A stretch of DNA of 64,000 bases from Candidatus Caldarchaeales archaeon (GTDB taxonomy: Archaea > Thermoproteota > Nitrososphaeria_A > Caldarchaeales > Calditenuaceae), in NCBI GenBank assembly GCA_039630085.1, contig JBCNVM010000008.1, forward strand, positions 7,179 through 71,178, written 5' to 3'. Of the stretch, positions 23,623 to 30,249 are shown piece by piece. A model generated the notes under the pieces. That model was not told the origin of the DNA. It made no database searches and was given only the letters and a program-made list of their open reading frames with translations. Position 1 is the first letter of the stretch; every line of letters begins with the position of its first letter. A program made the translations under genes and the position numbers.

Positions 23623-25023
23623 TTGGGCTACGACCTCGCGGTGATAGGCGCGGGACCAGCGGGATACGTGGCCGCGATCAGGGCCGCTCAGCTCGGATTG
23701 AAGGCCGCGGTCGTCGAGAGGGAGTCCGTCGGAGGAGAGTGCCTGAACTGGGGCTGCATACCCTCGAAGGCGATCATCGGCGTCGCGGAGGCTGTCCACA
23801 GGGCCGGATGGCTGAAGGAGGTCGGGGTCGAGTTCGGCCGGCCGAGGGTCGACATGGCGAGGCTGATCGGGTGGAAGGACTCGGTCGTGAGGAGGCTCGT
23901 CAGCGGGATCGAGTCGCTCTTCAGGGGTCACGGGATCGAGCTCGTGAGGGGAGAGGGCAGAGTCGTCTCGAGGGGCACCGTCAAGGTGCAGACCGGCTCA
24001 GGGACCCAGACGCTGGAGGCGAGGAGCGTGCTGATCGCGACAGGGTCGGCGCCGGTCGAGCTCCCCCAGATCCCCTTCGACGGCGAGAGGGTCCTTAGCT
24101 TCAGGCACGTCTTCTCGCTCCGGGAGCTCCCACAGAGGCTGCTCGTGGTCGGAGGGGGAGCGGTGGGCCTGGAGATGGCTACCGCGTTCAGGAAGCTCGG
24201 CTCGGAGGTGACCGTGGTCGAGTTGATGGACAGGGTCCTCCCCGCGATGGACAGGTCCCTCTCGGCCGCGGTGCAGAGGAGGCTCTCGGAGCTCGGCGTG
24301 AGGGTGATGCTCAGCTCGACGGTCGTGGGGCACGAGAAGCTCAACGGCTCGGTCAGGGTGAAGGTTAAGGGGCCTGCGGGCGAGGAAGTCGTCGAGGCCG
24401 ACAGGGTGCTCGTCTCGGTCGGGAAGAAGGGGACAGGGGCGCCGGTCGCTGAGGGCCTCGGCGTGAAGGTCGACCCGAGGGGGTTCGTCGTGGTGGACGA
24501 GGAGTGCAGGACAGGAGCCGGATGGATATGGGCCGCAGGCGACGCGACCGGGCCACCCTTCCTCGCACACAGGGCCTACAGACAGGGCACGATCGCTGCG
24601 GAGTCGGTCGCAGGCCGCGTCACCACCTGGAGGCCGAGGCACTACCCGGTCACCGTCTTCACGGACCCGGAGGTCGCTTCGGTTGGGATGACCGAGGACG
24701 AGGCGACCTCCTCCGGCAGGAGGTTCAGGTCGGTCACGTTCCCGCATGCCGCGCTCGGCAGGGCGATCGCCCACGGCGACCCGATCGGATTCGTGAAGGT
24801 CATGGTCGAGGAGGAGAGCGCGGAGGTCCTCGGGGTCCACGTCGCGGGCCCTCACTCATCAGAGCTGGTCTCGGAGCTCTCGGTCGCGATGGAGAACTAC
24901 ATGACGCTCGAAGACCTGCTCAGGGGAGTCCACCCGCACCCGACCTTCTCGGAGGCGATCGCCGAGGCCTTTGAGGCCGCTCTCGGGAGGCCGCTGCACG
25001 TACTTCGTGCTCACCGCATGTGA
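23623..25023 (+). CDS. lpdA: Dihydrolipoyl dehydrogenase (pyridine nucleotide-disulfide oxidoreductase class I)
   Basis: VIGAGPAGYVAAIRAAQLG (FAD binding), GGECLNWGCIPSK (redox disulfide), VVGGGAVGLEMA (NAD binding), and C-terminal HPHPTFSE. Confidence 0.9.
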   Translation: MGYDLAVIGAGPAGYVAAIRAAQLGLKAAVVERESVGGECLNWGCIPSKAIIGVAEAVHRAGWLKEVGVEFGRPRVDMARLIGWKDSVVRRLVSGIESLFRGHGIELVRGEGRVVSRGTVKVQTGSGTQTLEARSVLIATGSAPVELPQIPFDGERVLSFRHVFSLRELPQRLLVVGGGAVGLEMATAFRKLGSEVTVVELMDRVLPAMDRSLSAAVQRRLSELGVRVMLSSTVVGHEKLNGSVRVKVKGPAGEEVVEADRVLVSVGKKGTGAPVAEGLGVKVDPRGFVVVDEECRTGAGWIWAAGDATGPPFLAHRAYRQGTIAAESVAGRVTTWRPRHYPVTVFTDPEVASVGMTEDEATSSGRRFRSVTFPHAALGRAIAHGDPIGFVKVMVEEESAEVLGVHVAGPHSSELVSELSVAMENYMTLEDLLRGVHPHPTFSEAIAEAFEAALGRPLHVLRAHRM

Positions 25024-25192
25024 GCTTCCCTCCAAACCATCGTCCAGTGGCCAGAACCGTCTTACCGCGCCCTTGAACGGAGGAACTTTCCATTTAGCCA
25101 AAGTGAAAGCTGATTCGCTTGACAATTTTTCAGAAAGAATTAATGGGTGTCGTGAAGTAACCGTGAAATGCGCCTTATCATCTTAACGAGAG

Positions 25193-25205
25193 ATTATACA
25201 TAAAT
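25193..25205 (+). promoter_or_regulatory. A/T-rich TATA-like element (ATTATACATAAAT) upstream of the secreted-protein operon
   Basis: The strongest A/T block in the 182-nt spacer after lpd. It lies 25-37 nt upstream of the second in-frame ATG (25230, MNRLRNAAL...), which argues for a leaderless start there rather than at 25206. Confidence 0.4.
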
Positions 25206-25661
25206 ATGAACAGTAATCATGAACTATTGATGAACAGGTTGAGGAATGCGGCTTTAGTAATTGCGCTGGCCCTGATAGCGGCGATAACGGCGCTGGCGAG
25301 CTACGCGGTCGTGATCGGCCTGCAGAGCAGCGATGTGGCCCAGCTCGGAGGGACGTACTTAGTCGACGTCACGTGTCCGGAGGCCAACTGCCAGATCAAC
25401 AGGGTCTACTGGACTCTGAGCACCACGCCCCCGTTCAGAGTGACCCACGCCAACGTCGTCTGGGACACCGCGAAGACCGCTGGCGTGACTTACACCGTGT
25501 ACGTGGTCCTCTACGACAGCACCGGCACTAACGTCATCGGCAGCGGGTCCGCAACGCAGTCAGCTTCCTCGTCGACGGTCACCACGCAGGTCCCCGTCTC
25601 TCCAAACCCGCGACCGAGGGATGTCTACTACGTCGAAGTGGTAATCGTTGAGAACCCCTAG
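25206..25661 (+). CDS. Small secreted beta-rich protein P1 (putative fibre/pilin-like subunit, SipW-type signal peptide)
   Basis: A basic N-terminus plus hydrophobic helix ending in ASYAVVI, then QLGGT, then a Thr/Val/Ser-rich beta-strand sequence (VTYTVYVVLYDSTGTNVIGSGS). Two Cys. The likely true start is 25230. First gene of a tight five-gene operon with a signal peptidase. Confidence 0.6.
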   Translation: MNSNHELLMNRLRNAALVIALALIAAITALASYAVVIGLQSSDVAQLGGTYLVDVTCPEANCQINRVYWTLSTTPPFRVTHANVVWDTAKTAGVTYTVYVVLYDSTGTNVIGSGSATQSASSSTVTTQVPVSPNPRPRDVYYVEVVIVENP

Positions 25662-26103
25662 ACCCCTAACATTATTTCTGGTCGTTTTTTCGGTAGCCAT
25701 CTCAGCCTTCTCGGTAGCCATATCAGTCCAGCAAGTAGACAGATTGCCGGTAAAAAACGAGGTGATTTACGAACTGGGTTACACGAGCGTGAGGAACTTG
25801 CGTATATTCCAAGTTATCCTCCTTCCTACTACTGGTACCTCAATCAATCAAGTTCAGTTATTCCTTGCGAGAGACGCAGGTCTCGTCATCATGGCGGTCC
25901 TTCAAGTTGGTTTGTACGATGAAAACGGAAACTTGCTCAGTACTGGTAGGACGTGCGTCAACCTTCCCGCGTCGGCTGGGACAAGCTCCCCAACGTTGTC
26001 GTTAACCCCCTCAACCGTGCCCCTGTATAACATCGCTTTGGTTAGGACCTGCGTGGTTGCTACGATCTTACCATGTCCCGCACCGACGGTGAACTGCTTA
26101 TGA
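25648..26103 (+). CDS. Small secreted beta-rich protein P2 (paralog of P1; Cys-rich C-terminus)
   Basis: TTG start overlapping the P1 stop by 14 nt. Signal-like LTLFLVVFSVAISAFSVAISV. LQVGLYDENGNLLSTGRT parallels VVLYDSTGTNVIGSGS of P1. Five Cys in the last 50 aa. Lowest GC in the window. Confidence 0.55.
   Translation: MRTPRPLTLFLVVFSVAISAFSVAISVQQVDRLPVKNEVIYELGYTSVRNLRIFQVILLPTTGTSINQVQLFLARDAGLVIMAVLQVGLYDENGNLLSTGRTCVNLPASAGTSSPTLSLTPSTVPLYNIALVRTCVVATILPCPAPTVNCL
25690..25731 (+). repeat. Imperfect 21-bp tandem duplication inside the P2 signal-peptide coding region
   Basis: tcggtagccatctcagccttc / tcggtagccatatcagtccag, with 15 of the first 17 positions identical. It encodes SVAISAF/SVAISVQ. 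Confidence 0.7.
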
Positions 26104-26477
26104 GGGGCAGATTTCTCCTGCTGCTGTTGCTGCTCTCCTTGACCTCCATGATGACGTATGCAGTGGCGATTAACGTAACAACGGTAAACCAGCTCGGTGG
26201 CACGGGTCAAGAGACCGTCCCGAAATTCGACTTCGCAGTCAGGAGTGTGACCGTACCATCTGGTCCAACCATATCCTCTGTCACTGCTAGCGTCCAAGTC
26301 ACACAACCCGGAACTTACTTAGTTCAGGCGAGAGTAACAGTGGGTGCCTGTACTCTTTCCGGCTCGACGACTGCGTTACTAGGCACGACGCCCACGACCG
26401 TGACGATTAACTTCCCGGGGTCATGCACGCGAAACGCACCAACCATCGTCCAAGTCACGGTGCTTCAGGCTCCGTGA
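26073..26477 (+). CDS. Small secreted beta-rich protein P3 (paralog of P1)
   Basis: Signal peptide RGRFLLLLLLLSLTSMMTYAVAI followed by QLGGT, as in P1. The mature part is Thr/Val-rich with two Cys. The likely start is the ATG at 26100, which forms an ATGA overlap with the P2 stop. Confidence 0.6.
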   Translation: MSRTDGELLMRGRFLLLLLLLSLTSMMTYAVAINVTTVNQLGGTGQETVPKFDFAVRSVTVPSGPTISSVTASVQVTQPGTYLVQARVTVGACTLSGSTTALLGTTPTTVTINFPGSCTRNAPTIVQVTVLQAP

Positions 26478-26483
26478 TCTGAC

Positions 26484-27161
26484 ATGAGGGGGGTGACCAT
26501 CCTCGCGTTCTCGGGCCTCGCACTCATCACCTACGCCGTCGCGACAGGTCAGCTGGGGATATACTACGTAGTTACCGAGAGCATGGAGCCGAGCGCGCCG
26601 AGGGGCTCCCTGATTATCTCGGTCCCCGACAGGTTCGTGGAGGCCGGCGATATGGTCCTCTACGACCTTCAGGGCTTCACGGTCGTCCACAGGGCCTCCG
26701 AGCTGAGGCCGGAGGGGGTTCGGGTGGTCGCGGACGCGTACCCCTGGTATTCGGAGCTGGTCTCCTGGGAGAGGGTGAAGGGCAGAGCGGTCCTCGTGAT
26801 ACCGTTCCTCGGGTACGTCGCGCTCGGGCTCTCCGCAGTGCCCGTGGTCTTGTTGGGTCTCCTGGTCGTCCTGCTGCTCCCCAGGAAGCCTCAGGAGGGC
26901 CAGTCCGGGAGCCCGCTCCTCTTCGCGTTTTCAGGCGGAGCCCTAGTCCTGGTAGCGGCCATCGGCGACACGGGACTCGTGACGATCGGCAAAGTCCCCG
27001 CGCTCGTCCTGCTCGCCTCTTCGCTGGCGGCAATCAGGTATCTGGAGGCGAGGGGATCGGACGCGCCGGGTTGGTTGATCGACGCGTCCTACGTCATCTT
27101 TTTAGTCGCGTGCCTCGCTTCGATATCAAGGAAGGCCTTCTTGGGGGTGTTGGGGCTCTGA
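26484..27161 (+). CDS. sipW: Type I signal peptidase, S26 family, ER/archaeal SipW-like (Ser-His type)
   Basis: An N-terminal TM helix, then VVTESMEPSAPRGSLII (catalytic Ser box, compare SGSMEP), then GDMVLYD...VVHRA (His box). Two or three additional C-terminal TM helices. It starts 6 nt after the P3 stop. Confidence 0.8.
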   Translation: MRGVTILAFSGLALITYAVATGQLGIYYVVTESMEPSAPRGSLIISVPDRFVEAGDMVLYDLQGFTVVHRASELRPEGVRVVADAYPWYSELVSWERVKGRAVLVIPFLGYVALGLSAVPVVLLGLLVVLLLPRKPQEGQSGSPLLFAFSGGALVLVAAIGDTGLVTIGKVPALVLLASSLAAIRYLEARGSDAPGWLIDASYVIFLVACLASISRKAFLGVLGL

Positions 27162-28513
27162 GGACCGCATCGCTCGCGGCGCTCTCGGTCCTGACCGTCG
27201 TCCTGATGGTGACCTCCGCGGCCCACGCCTCGTCGGGCGTGGTGATCCACAACAGGTACGGCCTGCCGATCACCGTTGACGGCCAGCTGGTCGATAGGTT
27301 CCCGGCGAGCGTCAGGCCCGGGTCCTACGTCTGCGTAGTCCACCAGGTCTTCTACCTCACCTCCGAGAGGAGGCTCGTCTTCAGGGGTTGGTCCAGCGGC
27401 GAGACCTCGCCCTGCCTCACCGCGACGTCAGGGACGCTCGAGGCCCTCTACGAGGAACAGGTCCTGGCCGTGGTCGACTCCAACTACGAGCCGGTCAGGA
27501 GGAGCATGTGGGTCAAGAGGGGCGAGAGGGTGGTCCTTGAGGTGGAGAGGGTCTACGTCGACCGCGGCTACCGGTACGTCTTCTCGAGGTGGAGCAGGGG
27601 CGAGAACCCGTTCGAGCCGGCCAACGCGATAGTCGCGATGGACCCGATCTACGTCGATGTGAGGTTCGTGAAGGAGGTGAGGATCGACGTGATATCGCAC
27701 TTCGGGGTCCCGGTCAACGGCTCGGGCTGGTACCGCGAGGACGAACCGGTCGTCATCTCCGCGCCCGGAGAGATCATGCTCGGACCTGACGAGAAGCTGG
27801 TCTTCAGGGAATGGACGACGGTGGGGCTCTACCCCGCCGTGATATACTCGCCGGGCTCGAGGGTCACGACGCTCGAGGCCAGGGCTCCGCACGTTATCAG
27901 GGCCGAGTACGACAGGTACCTCCGGGTGAACGTCGAGGGGCCGCAGGGCGTCATCGTCGGAGGCTGGTTCAAGGAGGGCGAGAGGGTCCAAGTCAGCGCT
28001 CCCCCGGTGATCGAGGTGATACCGAACGCTGTCAGGCTGGTCTTCGTCGGGTGGGAGGGAGACATCGCCGCGTCCGTCCCGAACGTCGCGTTCACCGTCA
28101 CGAAACCGCTCTCCGCCAAGGCCAACTACAGGCTCGAGTACAGGGTCGAGGTCAGGTCACCGGTCGGAGCCGCGGGGACGGGCTGGTACCCTGCTAACAC
28201 CACGGCCACGATCAGGGTCCCGACCGAAATGCAGGCCTTCCTCTTCGCGAAGAGGGTCCTGAGCCACTTCACCGGCGACTGCGGCGAGGACTGCAGGGTC
28301 GGCGGCCTCCTGAGGCTCTACGTCGACTCCCCGAAGTACGTCGAGGCCGTCTACAGGATCGAGCCGGACATCCAGTCGATAATCGCCGCGGGCGCGGTCG
28401 TGGGGACGGTGGTCGTCGCCTACTTCGCCATCGAGAGGATCAGGAGAAGGAGGGAGGTCATCCGGATCGGCTTCGAGGACATGGAGGAGCCCAAAAAGGT
28501 CGAGAGCCCATAG
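27071..28513 (+). CDS. Surface protein with five divergent InlB-B-like beta repeats, an N-terminal signal peptide and a C-terminal TM anchor
   Basis: Recurrent repeat signature: LVFRGWSSGE, YVFSRWSRGE, GSGWY...LVFREWTT, GGWF...LVFVGWEGD, GTGWY...VLSHFTGD. Signal peptide ...LTVVLMVTSAAHA/SSG. C-terminal IIAAGAVVGTVVVAYFAIERIRRRRE. No alternative start exists between 27071 and the Met at 27206, so it overlaps sipW by 91 nt. Confidence 0.7.
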   Translation: MVDRRVLRHLFSRVPRFDIKEGLLGGVGALRTASLAALSVLTVVLMVTSAAHASSGVVIHNRYGLPITVDGQLVDRFPASVRPGSYVCVVHQVFYLTSERRLVFRGWSSGETSPCLTATSGTLEALYEEQVLAVVDSNYEPVRRSMWVKRGERVVLEVERVYVDRGYRYVFSRWSRGENPFEPANAIVAMDPIYVDVRFVKEVRIDVISHFGVPVNGSGWYREDEPVVISAPGEIMLGPDEKLVFREWTTVGLYPAVIYSPGSRVTTLEARAPHVIRAEYDRYLRVNVEGPQGVIVGGWFKEGERVQVSAPPVIEVIPNAVRLVFVGWEGDIAASVPNVAFTVTKPLSAKANYRLEYRVEVRSPVGAAGTGWYPANTTATIRVPTEMQAFLFAKRVLSHFTGDCGEDCRVGGLLRLYVDSPKYVEAVYRIEPDIQSIIAAGAVVGTVVVAYFAIERIRRRREVIRIGFEDMEEPKKVESP

Positions 28514-28589: not shown

Positions 28590-28597
28590 TTTTTTAG
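28590..28597 (+). promoter_or_regulatory. TATA-like TTTTTTAG upstream of aIF2-gamma (it may also act as an oligo-T terminator for the preceding operon)
   Basis: 24-31 nt upstream of the ATG at 28621, and the only A/T block in the spacer. Confidence 0.4.
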
Positions 28598-28620
28598 TGC
28601 GGGAGGGGTCGGTGCGGCGG

Positions 28621-29865
28621 ATGAGCGCAGTAATGCCGAGGCAGCCGGAGGTCAACATCGGGACGCTGGGGCACGTCGACAACGGCAAGACGACCCTCGT
28701 CCAGGCGATAACAGGAGTCTGGACCGCGAGGCACTCGGAGGAGCTGAAGAGGGGGATAACGATCAGGATAGGTTACGCAGACGCGGCGGTCTACAGGTGC
28801 CCCCTCTGCGAGGAGCCCTTCAACTACAAGACAAGCGTCATCTGCCCTGCACACGGCGTCCAGACCGAGCTTGCGAGGGTCGTCTCGTTCATCGACTGCC
28901 CCGGCCACCACTCCCTGATGATAACTATGCTCAGCGGCGCGCCCCTCTTCGACGGAGCGGTCTTCGTAGTCGACGCGAGGGTGAAGTTCCCCCAGCCCCA
29001 GGACAGGGAGCACCTCGAGGCGATGCTGGTGATGGGGATGAGGAACATCGTCTTCGCGCAGAACAAGGTCGACGTCGTGACGCCGGAGAGGGCGAGGGAG
29101 AACTACGACGAGATAGTGAGCTACGCGACCTCGAGGGGCCTTGAGGAGCCGGTCGTCGTCCCGGTCTCGGCACAGCAGGGAGCAGGTGTCGAGGCGCTCC
29201 TTTACGCGATGGAGATGTGCATACCGACCCCGAAGAGGGACCCCGCGAAGCCCTTCCTGATGCCGGTCCTGAGGTCCTTCGACGTCAACATGCCCGGCAC
29301 TGTCGCGACGGAGATCAAGGGGGGCGTGATAGGAGGCTCGATAGTGCAGGGGACCGTGAGAATCGGCGACGAGATCGAGATCGTCCCGGGGCTCCCCGCG
29401 AGGCCCGACCAGCCCGGGTCGCCCTACGAGCCGGTCCACACGGTCGCTAGGAACATCAAGGCCGGAGGGAGGGGCGTGAGGGAGGCAAGCTGCGGAGGGC
29501 TCGTGGGGATCGAGACCGACCTTGACCCGTCCTTCACGAAGTCGGACGGCATGAGCGGGAACATGGCCGGGAGGCCCGGGACGCTGCCGCCTGTATGGGG
29601 CGAGCTCGACCTGGAGTACGCCCTCTTCGAGAGGGTCGTCGGGGTCGACGGCGACCTGAAGGTCGGCAGGATCGCGCCGAGGGAAGCCCTGGTCCTCAAC
29701 GCGTACTCCGCGGTCACAAGCGGCGTCGTCACCTCCGTGTCCGGCGAGAGGCTGTCGGTGAAGCTCACCCGGCCGATAGCCGCGTCCCCCGGCGACAGGG
29801 TCACGATCAGCAGGAAGGTCGGGACCGGCTGGAGGCTGATCGGGTACGGCAGGATAGTCGGGTGA
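28621..29865 (+). CDS. eif2g: Translation initiation factor aIF2 gamma subunit
   Basis: NIGTLGHVDNGKTTL (G1), DCPGH (G3), NKVD (G4) and a zinc knuckle CPLCEE...CPAHG. I chose the ATG at 28621 over the track GTG at 28597 because of the TATA spacing. Confidence 0.95.
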   Translation: MSAVMPRQPEVNIGTLGHVDNGKTTLVQAITGVWTARHSEELKRGITIRIGYADAAVYRCPLCEEPFNYKTSVICPAHGVQTELARVVSFIDCPGHHSLMITMLSGAPLFDGAVFVVDARVKFPQPQDREHLEAMLVMGMRNIVFAQNKVDVVTPERARENYDEIVSYATSRGLEEPVVVPVSAQQGAGVEALLYAMEMCIPTPKRDPAKPFLMPVLRSFDVNMPGTVATEIKGGVIGGSIVQGTVRIGDEIEIVPGLPARPDQPGSPYEPVHTVARNIKAGGRGVREASCGGLVGIETDLDPSFTKSDGMSGNMAGRPGTLPPVWGELDLEYALFERVVGVDGDLKVGRIAPREALVLNAYSAVTSGVVTSVSGERLSVKLTRPIAASPGDRVTISRKVGTGWRLIGYGRIVG

Positions 29866-29868
29866 GGG

Positions 29869-30249
29869 TTGAGGGCGATCGTCGACGCGAGCTTCCTGAT
29901 GAGGTCCGTCGAGCTGGGTAGGGACCTGATCGAGGCGGTCTCCGAGAGGCTCGGCGAGCCCGTCGTCCCCTACACGGTGCCCCAGGTCCTCGAGGAGCTC
30001 AGGAGGCTCTCCTCGGGGAGAGGAGTGAAGGCCATCAGGGTGAGGGCCGCGCTGAAGGTCGCGAGAGGCATCGAGGTGGTCGAGGTGGGCGAGAGGGACG
30101 CGCCCGCGGACCGGGTGCTGGTAGAGCTCTCGAGGCAGAGGGGCGACATCGTCCTGACGTCGGACCTCGGAGTGATGAGGGCGGTCCTGAGGAGAGGAGG
30201 GAGGGCCGCGCTGGTCACGGAGGAGGGAGAGGTGAAGCTGGTCCTCTGA
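29869..30249 (+). CDS. PIN-domain protein (small, housekeeping-context type, downstream of aIF2-gamma)
   Basis: 126 aa. The acidic residues are in PIN positions (IVDASFL, VLEEL, LTSDLGV). TTG start 3 nt after the aIF2-gamma stop. Confidence 0.6.
   Translation: MRAIVDASFLMRSVELGRDLIEAVSERLGEPVVPYTVPQVLEELRRLSSGRGVKAIRVRAALKVARGIEVVEVGERDAPADRVLVELSRQRGDIVLTSDLGVMRAVLRRGGRAALVTEEGEVKLVL

Follow-up and report, generated by a model that had tools for sequence, protein, structure and literature searches.

The locus lies on the forward strand of a 64-kb window (the whole stretch of DNA analyzed), where five co-directional genes, designated P1 to P5, occupy positions 25230-28513. A sequence-only reading of this DNA had described a tight five-gene operon, and all of its junctions were borne out when the ORFs were checked by position. 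P1 (25230..25661) and P2 (25648..26103, a 151-aa precursor supported by the ORF and family profiles) overlap by 14 nt (25648-25661). An ATGA is common to the P2 stop and the P3 start if P3 begins at 26100 (26100..26477), and 6 nt separate P3 from P4 (26484..27161, 225 aa). P4 is overlapped by P5 over 91 nt when the longest P5 ORF is taken (480 aa, from 27071) or over 52 nt when P5 is read from a GTG at 27110 (27110..28513), which is the start in a public gene call with an identical 467-aa protein. The true starts are likely later than those of the longest ORFs. P1, whose longest ORF begins at 25206, probably starts at 25230 (143 aa), in agreement with the called protein and its homologs, and P3, whose longest ORF begins at 26073, probably starts at 26100 (125 aa). 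An AT-rich, TATA-like box at 25194..25205, about 25-35 nt 5' of the probable P1 start, is a candidate operon promoter on the same strand; similar AT-rich boxes are found at like distances 5' of P1 in many orthologous loci. A T6 run at 28590..28595, also read on the plus strand, follows the P5 stop and precedes the eIF2-gamma gene, which begins at 28597; it is a possible archaeal oligo-T terminator.

Pairwise BLASTP comparison of P1, P2 and P3 gave no significant match, yet hhalign of the family profiles gave probabilities of 96.5% for P1-P2, 93.6% for P1-P3 and 82-86% for P2-P3, and the family HMMs cross-matched one another within the window. By profile comparison, the only means by which the relationship is detectable, the three proteins are distant paralogs, as had been claimed. 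Two motifs that had been picked out by eye, an LYDxxG..S.G block common to P1 and P2 and (S/T)YA↓V.I...QLGGT (arrow, cleavage site) common to P1 and P3, proved to be real and conserved in the families. Each protein is comprised of a Sec-type signal peptide and an Ig-like sandwich of about 100 aa. Cleavage is predicted at SYA↓VVIG in P1 (signal peptide residues 1-26, mature protein of 117 aa), AFS↓VAIS in P2 (residues 1-22, 129 aa, 4 Cys) and TYA↓VAIN in P3 (residues 1-21, 104 aa, 2 Cys), and the number of Cys residues is even in every mature protein. Searches of Pfam and NCBIfam with P1-P3 gave no family match, in keeping with the sequence-only reading, which could place them in none, and comparison with solved pilins gave none either, with neither TasA/AbpA nor DUF1102/TafE recovered. 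Both the conservation of P1-P3 and their homology to unrelated proteins were examined, and neither refuted the idea of a surface-fiber module. An exhaustive P1-profile search of 1.84 billion proteins found 94 representative proteins. The P1-P3 subunits are outside every described family.

We are confident that P1, as modeled, is an Ig-like sandwich. The AF2 monomer (pLDDT 79.8 overall, >90 in the domain) shows a mature part made of an N-terminal extension (V-x-I-x-L...QLGGT) followed by a seven-strand Ig-like sandwich, and an alignment of 37 P1 sequences revealed an invariant Cys pair (CPxxxC). Foldseek with this model returned generic Ig-like matches only (E of at least 0.01) and no solved pilin or fiber subunit other than a type IV pilin of Pyrobaculum, which was matched weakly (8fk7; E = 0.045, TM 0.32). 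A TasA/AbpA-type subunit was considered for P1 and rejected, since such subunits are jelly rolls of some 200 aa and the model is a small Ig-like sandwich.

The signal peptides of P1-P3 end in a common motif, A-[Y/F/L]-[A/S]↓V-x-I-x-L. Position -2 is Y, F or L in all 36 P1-P3 sequences, position -1 is A or S in 35/36, position +3 is I, L, V or M in 35/36 and position +5 is L, V or I in 30/36, and in all three paralog families hydrophobic residues alternate at +1, +3 and +5. In P5 orthologs the sites are of the ordinary AxA↓E type, and position -2 is never Y, F or L. In the 37-sequence alignment few segments of the family are as conserved as the P1 extension, with A26, V27, I29, G40 and T42 invariant and L31, S33 and G41 nearly so. 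Residues 27-43 (25308..25358, plus strand) form a candidate donor strand and Gly-rich hinge, judged from the family alignment and the model. Residues 21-50 have a mean pLDDT of 45-68, against >90 for the domain, and are poorly placed in the AF2 monomer; the donor strand of AbpA is likewise folded back into the subunit in its AlphaFold monomer (PMC9245690). The architecture, a helix at the N terminus and then an Ig-like domain, would, together with the weak match to 8fk7, also suit a type IV pilin-like or N-terminally anchored protein in which the hydrophobic N terminus is kept and not cleaved. We find this hardly credible. The h-region is not preceded by a conserved class III site of the form [K/R]-[G/A]↓hydrophobic; it is the least conserved part of P1-P3 and varies in length, and the A-Y-A↓V site that follows it is invariant in type. 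Moreover, the neighboring enzyme is an S26 signal peptidase and not an A24 prepilin peptidase, and PilB/PilC-like genes are absent nearby.

That enzyme, P4, is predicted to have five TM helices, one on the N-terminal side of a minimal catalytic domain of about 90 aa and four on its C-terminal side; within the family there are five TM helices in the long form and two in the short form. The catalytic domain holds Ser33 in SMEP (nt 26580-26582), His69-Arg70 (nt 26688-26693) and Asp84. Residues S33, M34, P36, G41, S42, G55, H69, R70 and D84, and with them the SMEP, GS, GD, HR and D motifs, are invariant in the family. The window P4 alone scored 29.3 bits against TIGR02228, below the equivalog cut-off of 51.85, and was also under the cut-off for Pfam S24 and S26. 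At the family level, TIGR02228 was matched by 11/11 members and the SipW model by 10/11, and the family profile aligned to human SEC11A/C (E ~2e-11) through the SMEP and HR motifs. The earlier assignment to the S26 Ser-His, SipW/Sec11-type enzymes was thereby upheld: judged by its sequence, P4 is a divergent signal peptidase I of the Sec11/SipW type (S26B, Ser-His).

P5 is a type-I membrane protein: a signal peptide (AHA↓SS) comes first, then five tandem beta-grasp/InlB-B-repeat-like domains, each of about 75 aa, then a C-terminal TM helix and a short basic cytoplasmic tail. The five repeats and the anchor thus agree with the sequence-only reading. Its label of InlB B-repeats held at the level of the family, of which 7 of 16 members matched PF18998 (best E = 6e-9), and at that of the fold, the AF2 model (pLDDT 86.5) being a tandem beta-grasp with matches to linear polyubiquitin, SHIRT and the InlB B-repeat. 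Taken by itself, the window protein gave a weak match (TIGR02543, E = 0.018). Unlike other surface proteins with InlB B-repeat/Flg_new_2 (PF18998) domains, P5 is archaeal, has a type-I membrane anchor and, in many orthologs, a cytoplasmic zinc ribbon, and is tied by obligate linkage to three small secreted proteins and their signal peptidase. It is not a DUF5305 protein, and the P5 family search recovered no DUF5305. P5 is often in translational overlap with P4, and in some loci it lies on the opposite strand.

In order to determine how tightly these genes are associated, related loci were compared. The 8 complete loci from Caldarchaeales have the order P1-P2-P3-P4(-P5), which recurs in a MAG of Aeropyrum sp. 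and in another lineage of Nitrososphaerota; all carriers are known from MAGs or metagenomes only. Among 41 metagenomic P4-family loci, P1, P2 and P3 were present in all 26 that had enough upstream DNA and P5 in all 23 that had enough downstream DNA. None of 33 loci of more distant signal peptidases had any of P1, P2, P3 or P5, which supports a specific link. P1, P2 and P3 occur in exactly one copy each and in fixed order in every locus, and every complete genome locus has P5, despite flanking genes that vary from locus to locus. The five genes are one conserved operon-like module, real and unannotated, which is obligately linked and inherited as a unit, with P4 specifically tied to P1-P3 and P5.

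This linkage bears on two other readings. In one, P4 is merely the general housekeeping Sec11-type signal peptidase of the genome and its neighborhood with P1-P3 is meaningless; in its favor, no second signal peptidase is encoded within the window. We regard this as very improbable, since P4-family genes never occurred without P1-P3 and P5, more distant signal peptidases never occurred with them, and the module changes genomic context as a unit. The window P4 is also under the equivalog cut-off, and its close homologs carry the name "hypothetical" at NCBI. Signal peptidase I is, to our knowledge, universal, whereas the P1 profile is matched by so few proteins, which suggests that lineages without the module must use another enzyme. 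Alternatively, P1-P3 may be soluble secreted proteins (binding, protective or matrix) that need a specialized peptidase because their cleavage site is unusual, with P5 unrelated and merely coinherited. The private motif, whose -2 residue is aromatic or Leu, and the loci with P5 on the opposite strand are in keeping with this, but the constancy of P5 amid changing flanks argues against it, as does the retention of three ancient paralogs together, which points to a joint function. We consider it improbable.

The sequence-only reading had likened the layout to that of tapA-sipW-tasA in Bacillus subtilis and to the bundling pili of Pyrobaculum. The first parallel stands for the SipW-type peptidase and the type of layout: the substrates share a locus with their own archaeal/ER-type (Ser-His) signal peptidase, and the cleavage site of TasA, too, has an aromatic residue at -2 (TWA↓AF). 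It does not extend to TasA/AbpA homology or fold. The TasA jelly-roll family, Pfam PF12389 (PMC9245690), is absent from the module, SipW-cognate signal-peptide models gave no match to P1-P3 at E ≤ 1, these Ig-like subunits are half as large as TasA, and there is no TapA-like protein. The second parallel was imprecise. The bundling pili of Pyrobaculum calidifontis (AbpA/AbpB) and the Sulfolobus threads (Saci_0406) also have thermophilic Thermoproteota as hosts and Sec-exported, beta-rich subunits processed by signal peptidase I, as P1-P3 presumably are; they polymerize by N-terminal strand donation with no known chaperone or usher, as P1-P3 may do. However, their folds and sizes differ, with no Foldseek or sequence match to P1-P3, no dedicated peptidase is reported for the threads, and the study of the ABP operon of Pyrobaculum identified no such gene in its vicinity (PMC9245690).

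Closer published analogues are the Tafi, taf-like and AbpX loci. Tafi (Tat-fimbriae) and the Sec-dependent taf-like loci of Halobacteria, Thermococcales and Archaeoglobales encode 2-3 small secreted paralogs, membrane proteins and a multi-TM signal peptidase I on which processing and fiber formation depend; TafD, a dedicated S26 enzyme of this kind, is required for TafA processing and fiber formation (PMC11821415; PMC12337348). The module resembles them in its small secreted beta-sandwich paralogs adjoining a dedicated S26 peptidase, in its membrane-anchored accessory protein, and in the assembly logic that we propose, whereby a strand exposed by cleavage would be donated to the next subunit. 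It differs in that P1-P3 match neither DUF1102 nor TafE by sequence, no solved Tafi subunit is among the fold matches listed for P1, the mature proteins have 104-129 aa against about 150-200 aa for DUF1102 proteins, P1-P3 lack a Tat motif, P4 lacks the C-terminal Ig-like domain of TafD, the five-B-repeat P5 takes the place of a DUF5305 (TafG) gene, and the hosts are TACK thermophiles. Genes for TasA, AbpA, TafE and AbpX often have one for signal peptidase I beside them, and genes for a peptidase accessory, tip, minor filament and anchor are frequent additions in AbpX loci (preprint 10.64898/2026.01.04.697558). In the AbpX loci of Pyrodictium abyssi and relatives, the fibril subunit gene likewise adjoins that of a dedicated signal peptidase I that has additional TM helices, but that enzyme is reported to have ten (preprint 10.64898/2026.01.04.697558), against 5 (long) or 2 (short) in P4, and AbpX belongs to the TasA/AbpA-like group, to which no similarity of P1-P3 was found.

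Taken together, these observations indicate that the module very probably serves a surface assembly dependent on its dedicated peptidase. By sequence, P1, P2 and P3 are Sec precursors with a basic n-region and a hydrophobic h-region, and membrane-embedded P4 would cut them after the A-[Y/F/L]-[A/S] motif. The cut would expose the N-terminal beta-strand V-x-I-x-L, followed by the Gly-rich hinge QLGGTG, and this extension may enter the Ig-like sandwich of the next subunit, giving a thin heteropolymer by donor-strand complementation. P1 may be the main subunit, because it is the most conserved and its gene comes first, and P2 and P3 may be single-copy adaptor, tip or terminator subunits. P5, a five-beta-grasp stalk on one TM helix, would anchor or nucleate the structure at the membrane and may also be a partner of P4.

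By analogy with the known loci, the product may be a thin donor-strand fiber at the cell surface, a proposal for which we consider the case evenly balanced. A serious rival, although in our judgment an unlikely one, is a nonpolymeric surface complex in which P4-matured P1, P2 and P3 form a defined hetero-oligomer (e.g., 1:1:1) docked on the P5 stalk, perhaps by beta-augmentation of their N-terminal strands, and serve as adhesin, receptor or S-layer-associated complex. The P1 model resembles a complete sandwich, in which the seven strands, on secondary structure alone, leave no evident open acceptor groove, and the strictly single-copy, fixed-order trio fits a 1:1:1 complex and a major/minor pilin set equally. 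P5 has no counterpart in known fiber loci; its constant presence, its overlap with P4 and its zinc ribbon suggest a transmembrane link. The conservation of the cleavage site could reflect peptidase recognition only. Nevertheless, published loci of the same logic, with small secreted paralogs and a private signal peptidase I, have so far been those of fibers, the alternating-hydrophobic N-terminal strand and Gly hinge look like donor strands, and the contact of P1-P3 with P5 is hypothetical. Our best reading is that the module is a new variant of the archaeal loci that combine pilins, a dedicated signal peptidase I and an anchor (Tafi, AbpX, TasA-SipW). It would provide thermophilic TACK archaea, among them Caldarchaeales/"Aigarchaeota," another Nitrososphaerota lineage and the Aeropyrum MAG, with a self-contained five-gene module for a cell-surface fiber or appendage.

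The five genes P1 to P5 are co-directional and are bounded by a dihydrolipoamide-dehydrogenase-type gene (23623-25023) on the preceding side and by the gene for eIF2-gamma (28597-29865) on the following side. The longest open reading frames of the three small secreted proteins span 25206-25661 (P1), 25648-26103 (P2), and 26073-26477 (P3); those of the signal peptidase (P4) and the membrane-anchored repeat protein (P5) span 26484-27161 and 27071-28513. The tight junctions described in the sequence-only reading were confirmed: P1 and P2 overlap by 14 nt, P3 and P4 are separated by 6 nt, P4 and P5 overlap by 91 nt, and P2 and P3 share an ATGA, provided that P3 starts at 26100. Comparison with homologs and public gene calls shifted three starts, most likely placing that of P1 at 25230 (143 aa), that of P3 at 26100 (125 aa), and that of P5 at a GTG at 27110 (467 aa, identical to the database protein P0047). 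An AT-rich, TATA-like box (25194-25205) lies ~25 to 35 nt upstream of the P1 start, with similar boxes at many orthologous loci, and a T6 run lies 3' of the P5 stop. The GC content of the module region (24001-28000) is 0.61 to 0.63 versus a whole-window mean of ~0.66, which could reflect amino acid composition or past transfer. The stretch just downstream of the module is an ordinary housekeeping neighborhood, in which a small PIN_9-domain gene (29869-30249) sits between the eIF2-gamma gene and a class I (Trp/Tyr-type) tRNA synthetase gene.

The five genes form a conserved, mobile unit. At the eight Caldarchaeales loci with enough sequence, which include Ca. Calditenuis fumarioli, Calditenuaceae, and Caldarchaeum metagenome-assembled genomes (MAGs), the order P1-P2-P3-P4 plus P5 is complete, and the full module is also found in an Aeropyrum sp. 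MAG and in another Nitrososphaerota lineage. A word-indexed homolog search with P4 returned at least three proteins, and a metagenome pattern scan seeded with the peptidase alignment was used in its place; it yielded 80 loci, 41 of which encode a P4-family enzyme (HMM E < 1e-26). These loci answered the question of co-occurrence raised in the sequence-only reading. P1, P2, and P3 were all present in each of the 26 P4-family loci with at least 1.4 kb of upstream sequence, and P5 was present in each of the 23 with at least 1.5 kb downstream (same strand in 18, convergent in 5). None of the four partners was found at 33 metagenome loci with more distant signal peptidases. This pattern of co-occurrence ties P4 specifically and obligately to P1 to P3 and P5. 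The flanking genes vary among loci, and no further gene belongs to the module. At one low-GC Nitrososphaerota locus (L012, 2559-5564), the gene directly upstream of the module encodes a VWA-domain protein, and an IS605-type element (resolvase plus TnpB/Cas12f1-like) lies just beyond it. Some of the more distant signal-peptidase loci of the metagenome scan (L064, 3335-6172; L068, 4893-7595; L069, 3235-4910) have a pair of signal peptidase I paralogs, adjacent or in close proximity, with neither P1 to P3 nor P5, and may represent other dedicated-peptidase systems.

Analysis of the P4 family revealed the catalytic boxes of a Ser-His signal peptidase. Residues S33-M34-E35-P36, invariant among 11 family members, align with the GSMEP box of human SEC11C, and the invariant H69-R70 pair aligns with its HR; G41-S42, G55, and D84 are also invariant. 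The predicted general base is thus the His of the H-R box and not Lys, as it is in bacterial LepB-type enzymes. The P4 of the window scores below curated cutoffs (TIGR02228, 29.3 bits against 51.85; Pfam S24, 19.7 against 23.3; S26, 12.1 against 22.9), and phmmer with P4 alone found no match among PDB sequences. The family profile was needed; it aligns to human SEC11A/C (E ~2e-11) via the boxes that hold the catalytic Ser and His. TIGR02228 is matched by 11 of 11 family members (best E = 6e-17) and the Bacillus SipW model by 10 of 11 at E <= 0.1. Since its relatives match both models and it falls short of the cutoffs, P4 is, judged by sequence, a divergent Sec11/SipW-type (S26B, Ser-His) signal peptidase I and not an equivalog. 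Close homologs carry the NCBI name "hypothetical." In P4, an N-terminal transmembrane (TM) helix precedes a minimal catalytic domain (~90 aa), after which four further TM helices are predicted. This long form (~220 to 230 aa, five TM helices) coexists with a short form of ~150 aa in other lineages, with an N-terminal and a single C-terminal TM helix (loci noted for the two forms are L011, 2283-2759; L012, 7227-7673; L019; L021; L039; and L043 to L045). The rarity of the module, set against the universal need for signal peptidase I, together with the divergence of P4, suggests that these genomes also encode a canonical general enzyme.

P1, P2, and P3 each have a basic n-region and one N-terminal hydrophobic stretch. 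The proposal that they are paralogs was borne out by profile methods and not by pairwise BLASTP, which gave nothing significant among the three. The family profiles aligned with hhalign probabilities of 96.5% (P1-P2), 93.6% (P1-P3), and 82 to 86% (P2-P3), and the HMM of each family recovered the other two within the window; because profiles relate them where BLASTP does not, we regard them as ancient paralogs. They also share one motif that runs from the last residues of the signal peptide into the mature protein. Among 36 sequences (the three families in 12 loci), position -3 is A in 25, -2 is Y/F/L in all 36, -1 is A/S in 35, +1 is V in 23, +3 is I/L/V/M in 35, and +5 is L/V/I in 30. QLGG(T)G comes next in P1 and P3, and a Pro-containing variant takes its place in P2. 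P5 orthologs have plain AxA↓E-type cleavage sites without Y/F/L at -2, which argues that the A-[Y/F/L]-[A/S] motif is specific to P1 to P3 rather than common to the organism's signal peptides in general. The case that P4 may cleave P1 to P3 is circumstantial: the conserved A-[YFL]-[AS] site occurs in genes neighboring its own. The predicted mature proteins are 117, 129, and 104 aa, with two, four, and two Cys residues, respectively.

In Pfam and NCBIfam searches, P1, P2, and P3 matched no family, and 35 of their relatives had no family in common at E <= 10 except for stray Ig-like matches. A profile search of PDB sequences recovered weak matches to Ig constant domains only. An exhaustive search with the P1 family profile covered 1.84 billion representative proteins and yielded 94 relatives, nearly all of 125 to 160 aa; the few long multidomain matches (FN3, Ig) are generic Ig-like ones. 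A Pfam scan of 61 of these relatives revealed no common known family, and all named members are called "hypothetical protein." The sources are Nitrososphaerota/Aigarchaeota MAGs, one Aeropyrum MAG, and one MAG labeled Dehalococcoidia. The protein from the last (P0130) is a distant superfamily member whose presence there could reflect misbinning or transfer into a bacterium.

P1 was modeled with AlphaFold2 from 37 homologs (mean pLDDT, 79.8); the model contains a seven-strand beta-sandwich with pLDDT above 90. Foldseek comparison of this model with the PDB returned only generic Ig-like folds (GH2 Ig domains, adhesin repeats, and DUF1425; E >= 0.01). The three exported paralogs are Ig-like proteins that share a private cleavage motif. 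The signal peptide and N-terminal extension were modeled with pLDDT values of 45 to 68. The 17 residues that follow the cleavage site are among the best conserved of P1, and the h-region upstream of the site varies in sequence and length. The extension is thus highly conserved yet poorly placed in the monomer model; similarly, in the AlphaFold monomer model of the archaeal fiber protein AbpA, the donor strand is turned back into its own subunit (PMC9245690). The hydrophobic residues of the P1 extension alternate, as would be expected of a donor strand. These features, with the published precedents (the Tafi, taf-like, TasA, AbpA, TafE, and AbpX loci), are the grounds for proposing strand donation. 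Cleavage would expose the V-x-I-x-L strand of P1 to P3, each exposed strand would be donated to the next subunit to build a fiber, and P5 would anchor or nucleate it. We put the chance that the module builds such a fiber at about even.

The same proteins might instead form a nonpolymeric surface complex, which we hold to be less likely than the fiber but a serious rival to it. A defined complex would account equally well for the strict 1:1:1 content of P1, P2, and P3 genes. In the model, the P1 sandwich seems complete, which also speaks against a fiber. Nor did P1 structurally match any pilin: TasA, AbpA, thread, Tafi, and chaperone-usher pilin structures were all absent from the 50 Foldseek PDB matches listed. 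Readings other than these two are less probable still. Archaeal type IV pilins were considered and rejected: P1 to P3 have no conserved class III site ([K/R]-[G/A] before a hydrophobic helix), the conserved site comes after an h-region that is itself variable, the neighboring enzyme is of the S26 type and not a prepilin peptidase, and the inspected loci have no pilus ATPase or platform genes.

P5, the putative anchor of the proposed fiber, begins with a signal peptide of its own and continues through five units of ~75 aa (motifs RLxFxGW and GxGWY) to a single C-terminal TM helix and a short basic tail. In its AlphaFold2 model (pLDDT, 86.5), five beta-rich repeating domains are strung in a row. 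The best Foldseek matches were linear tetra-ubiquitin chains (E = 1e-5 to 2e-4), followed by SHIRT repeats (1e-2) and the InlB B-repeat 7pv9 (0.24). As modeled, the repeats are tandem beta-grasp domains of ~70 to 80 aa. P5 is the membrane-anchored beta-grasp stalk of the unit, next to the private Sec11/SipW-type peptidase. The P5 of the window reached TIGR02543 only below the cutoff (E = 0.018) and did not match PF18998 (divergent InlB B-repeat) at E <= 1; the InlB-B-repeat label that P5 had been given holds at the level of family and fold, through PF18998 matches in 7 of 16 family members (best E = 6e-9) and the beta-grasp Foldseek matches. A C-terminal zinc ribbon is present in 6 of the 16 family members but not in the window protein. 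This cytoplasmic ribbon (PF13240; CxxxH...CPECG-like) ends many P5 orthologs (L001, 3163-4587 on the minus strand; L002; L009; L010) and the database relatives P0052, P0055, P0057, and P0063, whereas the window protein has the short basic tail only. P5 is convergent in one clade (L001, L002, L009, L010, and 5 of the 23 metagenome loci); elsewhere it lies on the same strand, with an overlap at the 3' end of the P4 gene wherever this was inspected (the window, L005, and L006). Coupled translation of P4 and P5 is therefore common but not obligatory.

The sequence-only reading had likened the module to tapA-sipW-tasA of Bacillus. The likeness holds for organization but not for membership of the subunits in the TasA family or fold. 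TasA models (Pfam PF12389 [PMC9245690]) and the SipW-cognate signal-peptide model gave no match to P1 to P3 at E <= 1, nor was either among the 25 families matched most often by the 35 family members (listed at E <= 10). TasA, camelysin, and AbpA are jelly rolls of ~200 aa; P1 is modeled as a seven-strand sandwich of ~100 aa. The module would work like tapA-sipW-tasA but more closely resembles the Tafi, taf-like, and AbpX loci. In Haloarcula, TafA processing and fiber formation depend on TafD, a multi-TM signal peptidase I (PMC11821415), strand-donation assembly of Tafi has been confirmed by cryo-electron microscopy (PMC12337348), and taf-like loci of Thermococcales and Archaeoglobus encode two or three small secreted paralogs with such a peptidase (PMC11821415). 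A signal peptidase I gene is reported to be often colocalized with TasA, AbpA, TafE, and AbpX genes, and genes for accessory, tip, minor, and anchor proteins are reported from AbpX loci as well (preprint 10.64898/2026.01.04.697558). The TafD type of peptidase is multi-TM with a C-terminal Ig-like domain; P4 is an S26-type, multi-TM enzyme (five predicted helices) but has no extracellular C-terminal domain. Tafi and taf-like loci carry a DUF5305 accessory gene (TafG) that the module lacks, and DUF5305 matched neither P5 nor its 16 relatives. DUF1102 was not matched by P1 to P3 and was not among the families listed for the 35 family members, and TafE was matched neither by profile against PDB sequences nor among the listed Foldseek matches. 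We do not count the module as a member of any of these groups, AbpX loci included; the searches for TasA, DUF1102, and DUF5305 were all negative. The comparison with the bundling pili of Pyrobaculum was not upheld: the ABP locus has no dedicated peptidase, according to its authors (PMC9245690). The organizational principle is thus familiar; the subunit family, anchor type, and host lineage are new.

Tentatively, and with somewhat less than even confidence, we propose that the module encodes archaeal strand-donation pili of a further class that is distinct in structure. Their subunits (Ig-like, 104 to 129 aa mature) would be the smallest known for this mode, and an invariant trio of paralogs with fixed roles would be matured by a private minimal Sec11/SipW-type peptidase. 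The five-beta-grasp stalk would root the fiber and, by way of its cytoplasmic zinc ribbon, couple it to the cell interior. The system would be old enough for Thermoproteota (Aeropyrum) and Nitrososphaerota (Caldarchaeales) to have it in common.

To our knowledge, nothing is known of the cell surface of Caldarchaeales ("Aigarchaeota"), whose habitat is filamentous hot-spring streamer communities. Donor-strand fibers with private signal peptidases (ABP, threads, Tafi, cannulae, and AbpX) are emerging as the main kind of archaeal biofilm scaffold. In Ca. Calditenuis aerorheumensis, a filamentous Aigarchaeote of a hot-spring streamer community, a three-gene "pilus system" (_01412 to _01414) is reported to be very highly transcribed, with RPKM values above 150,000 (PMC4681859), and this trio might be P1 to P3. 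If the module makes a fiber, it would add a new subunit fold and a new anchor type to the known donor-strand fibers and extend the principle to a further lineage. It would also be a source of Ig-like building blocks that are very small, thermostable, and disulfide bonded, and it would offer a clean natural pair of peptidase and cognate signal (A-[Y/F/L]-[A/S]↓V-x-I-x-L) for the study of signal peptidase I specificity. Even without a fiber, these five genes make up an obligately linked, unannotated surface system that deserves family definition.
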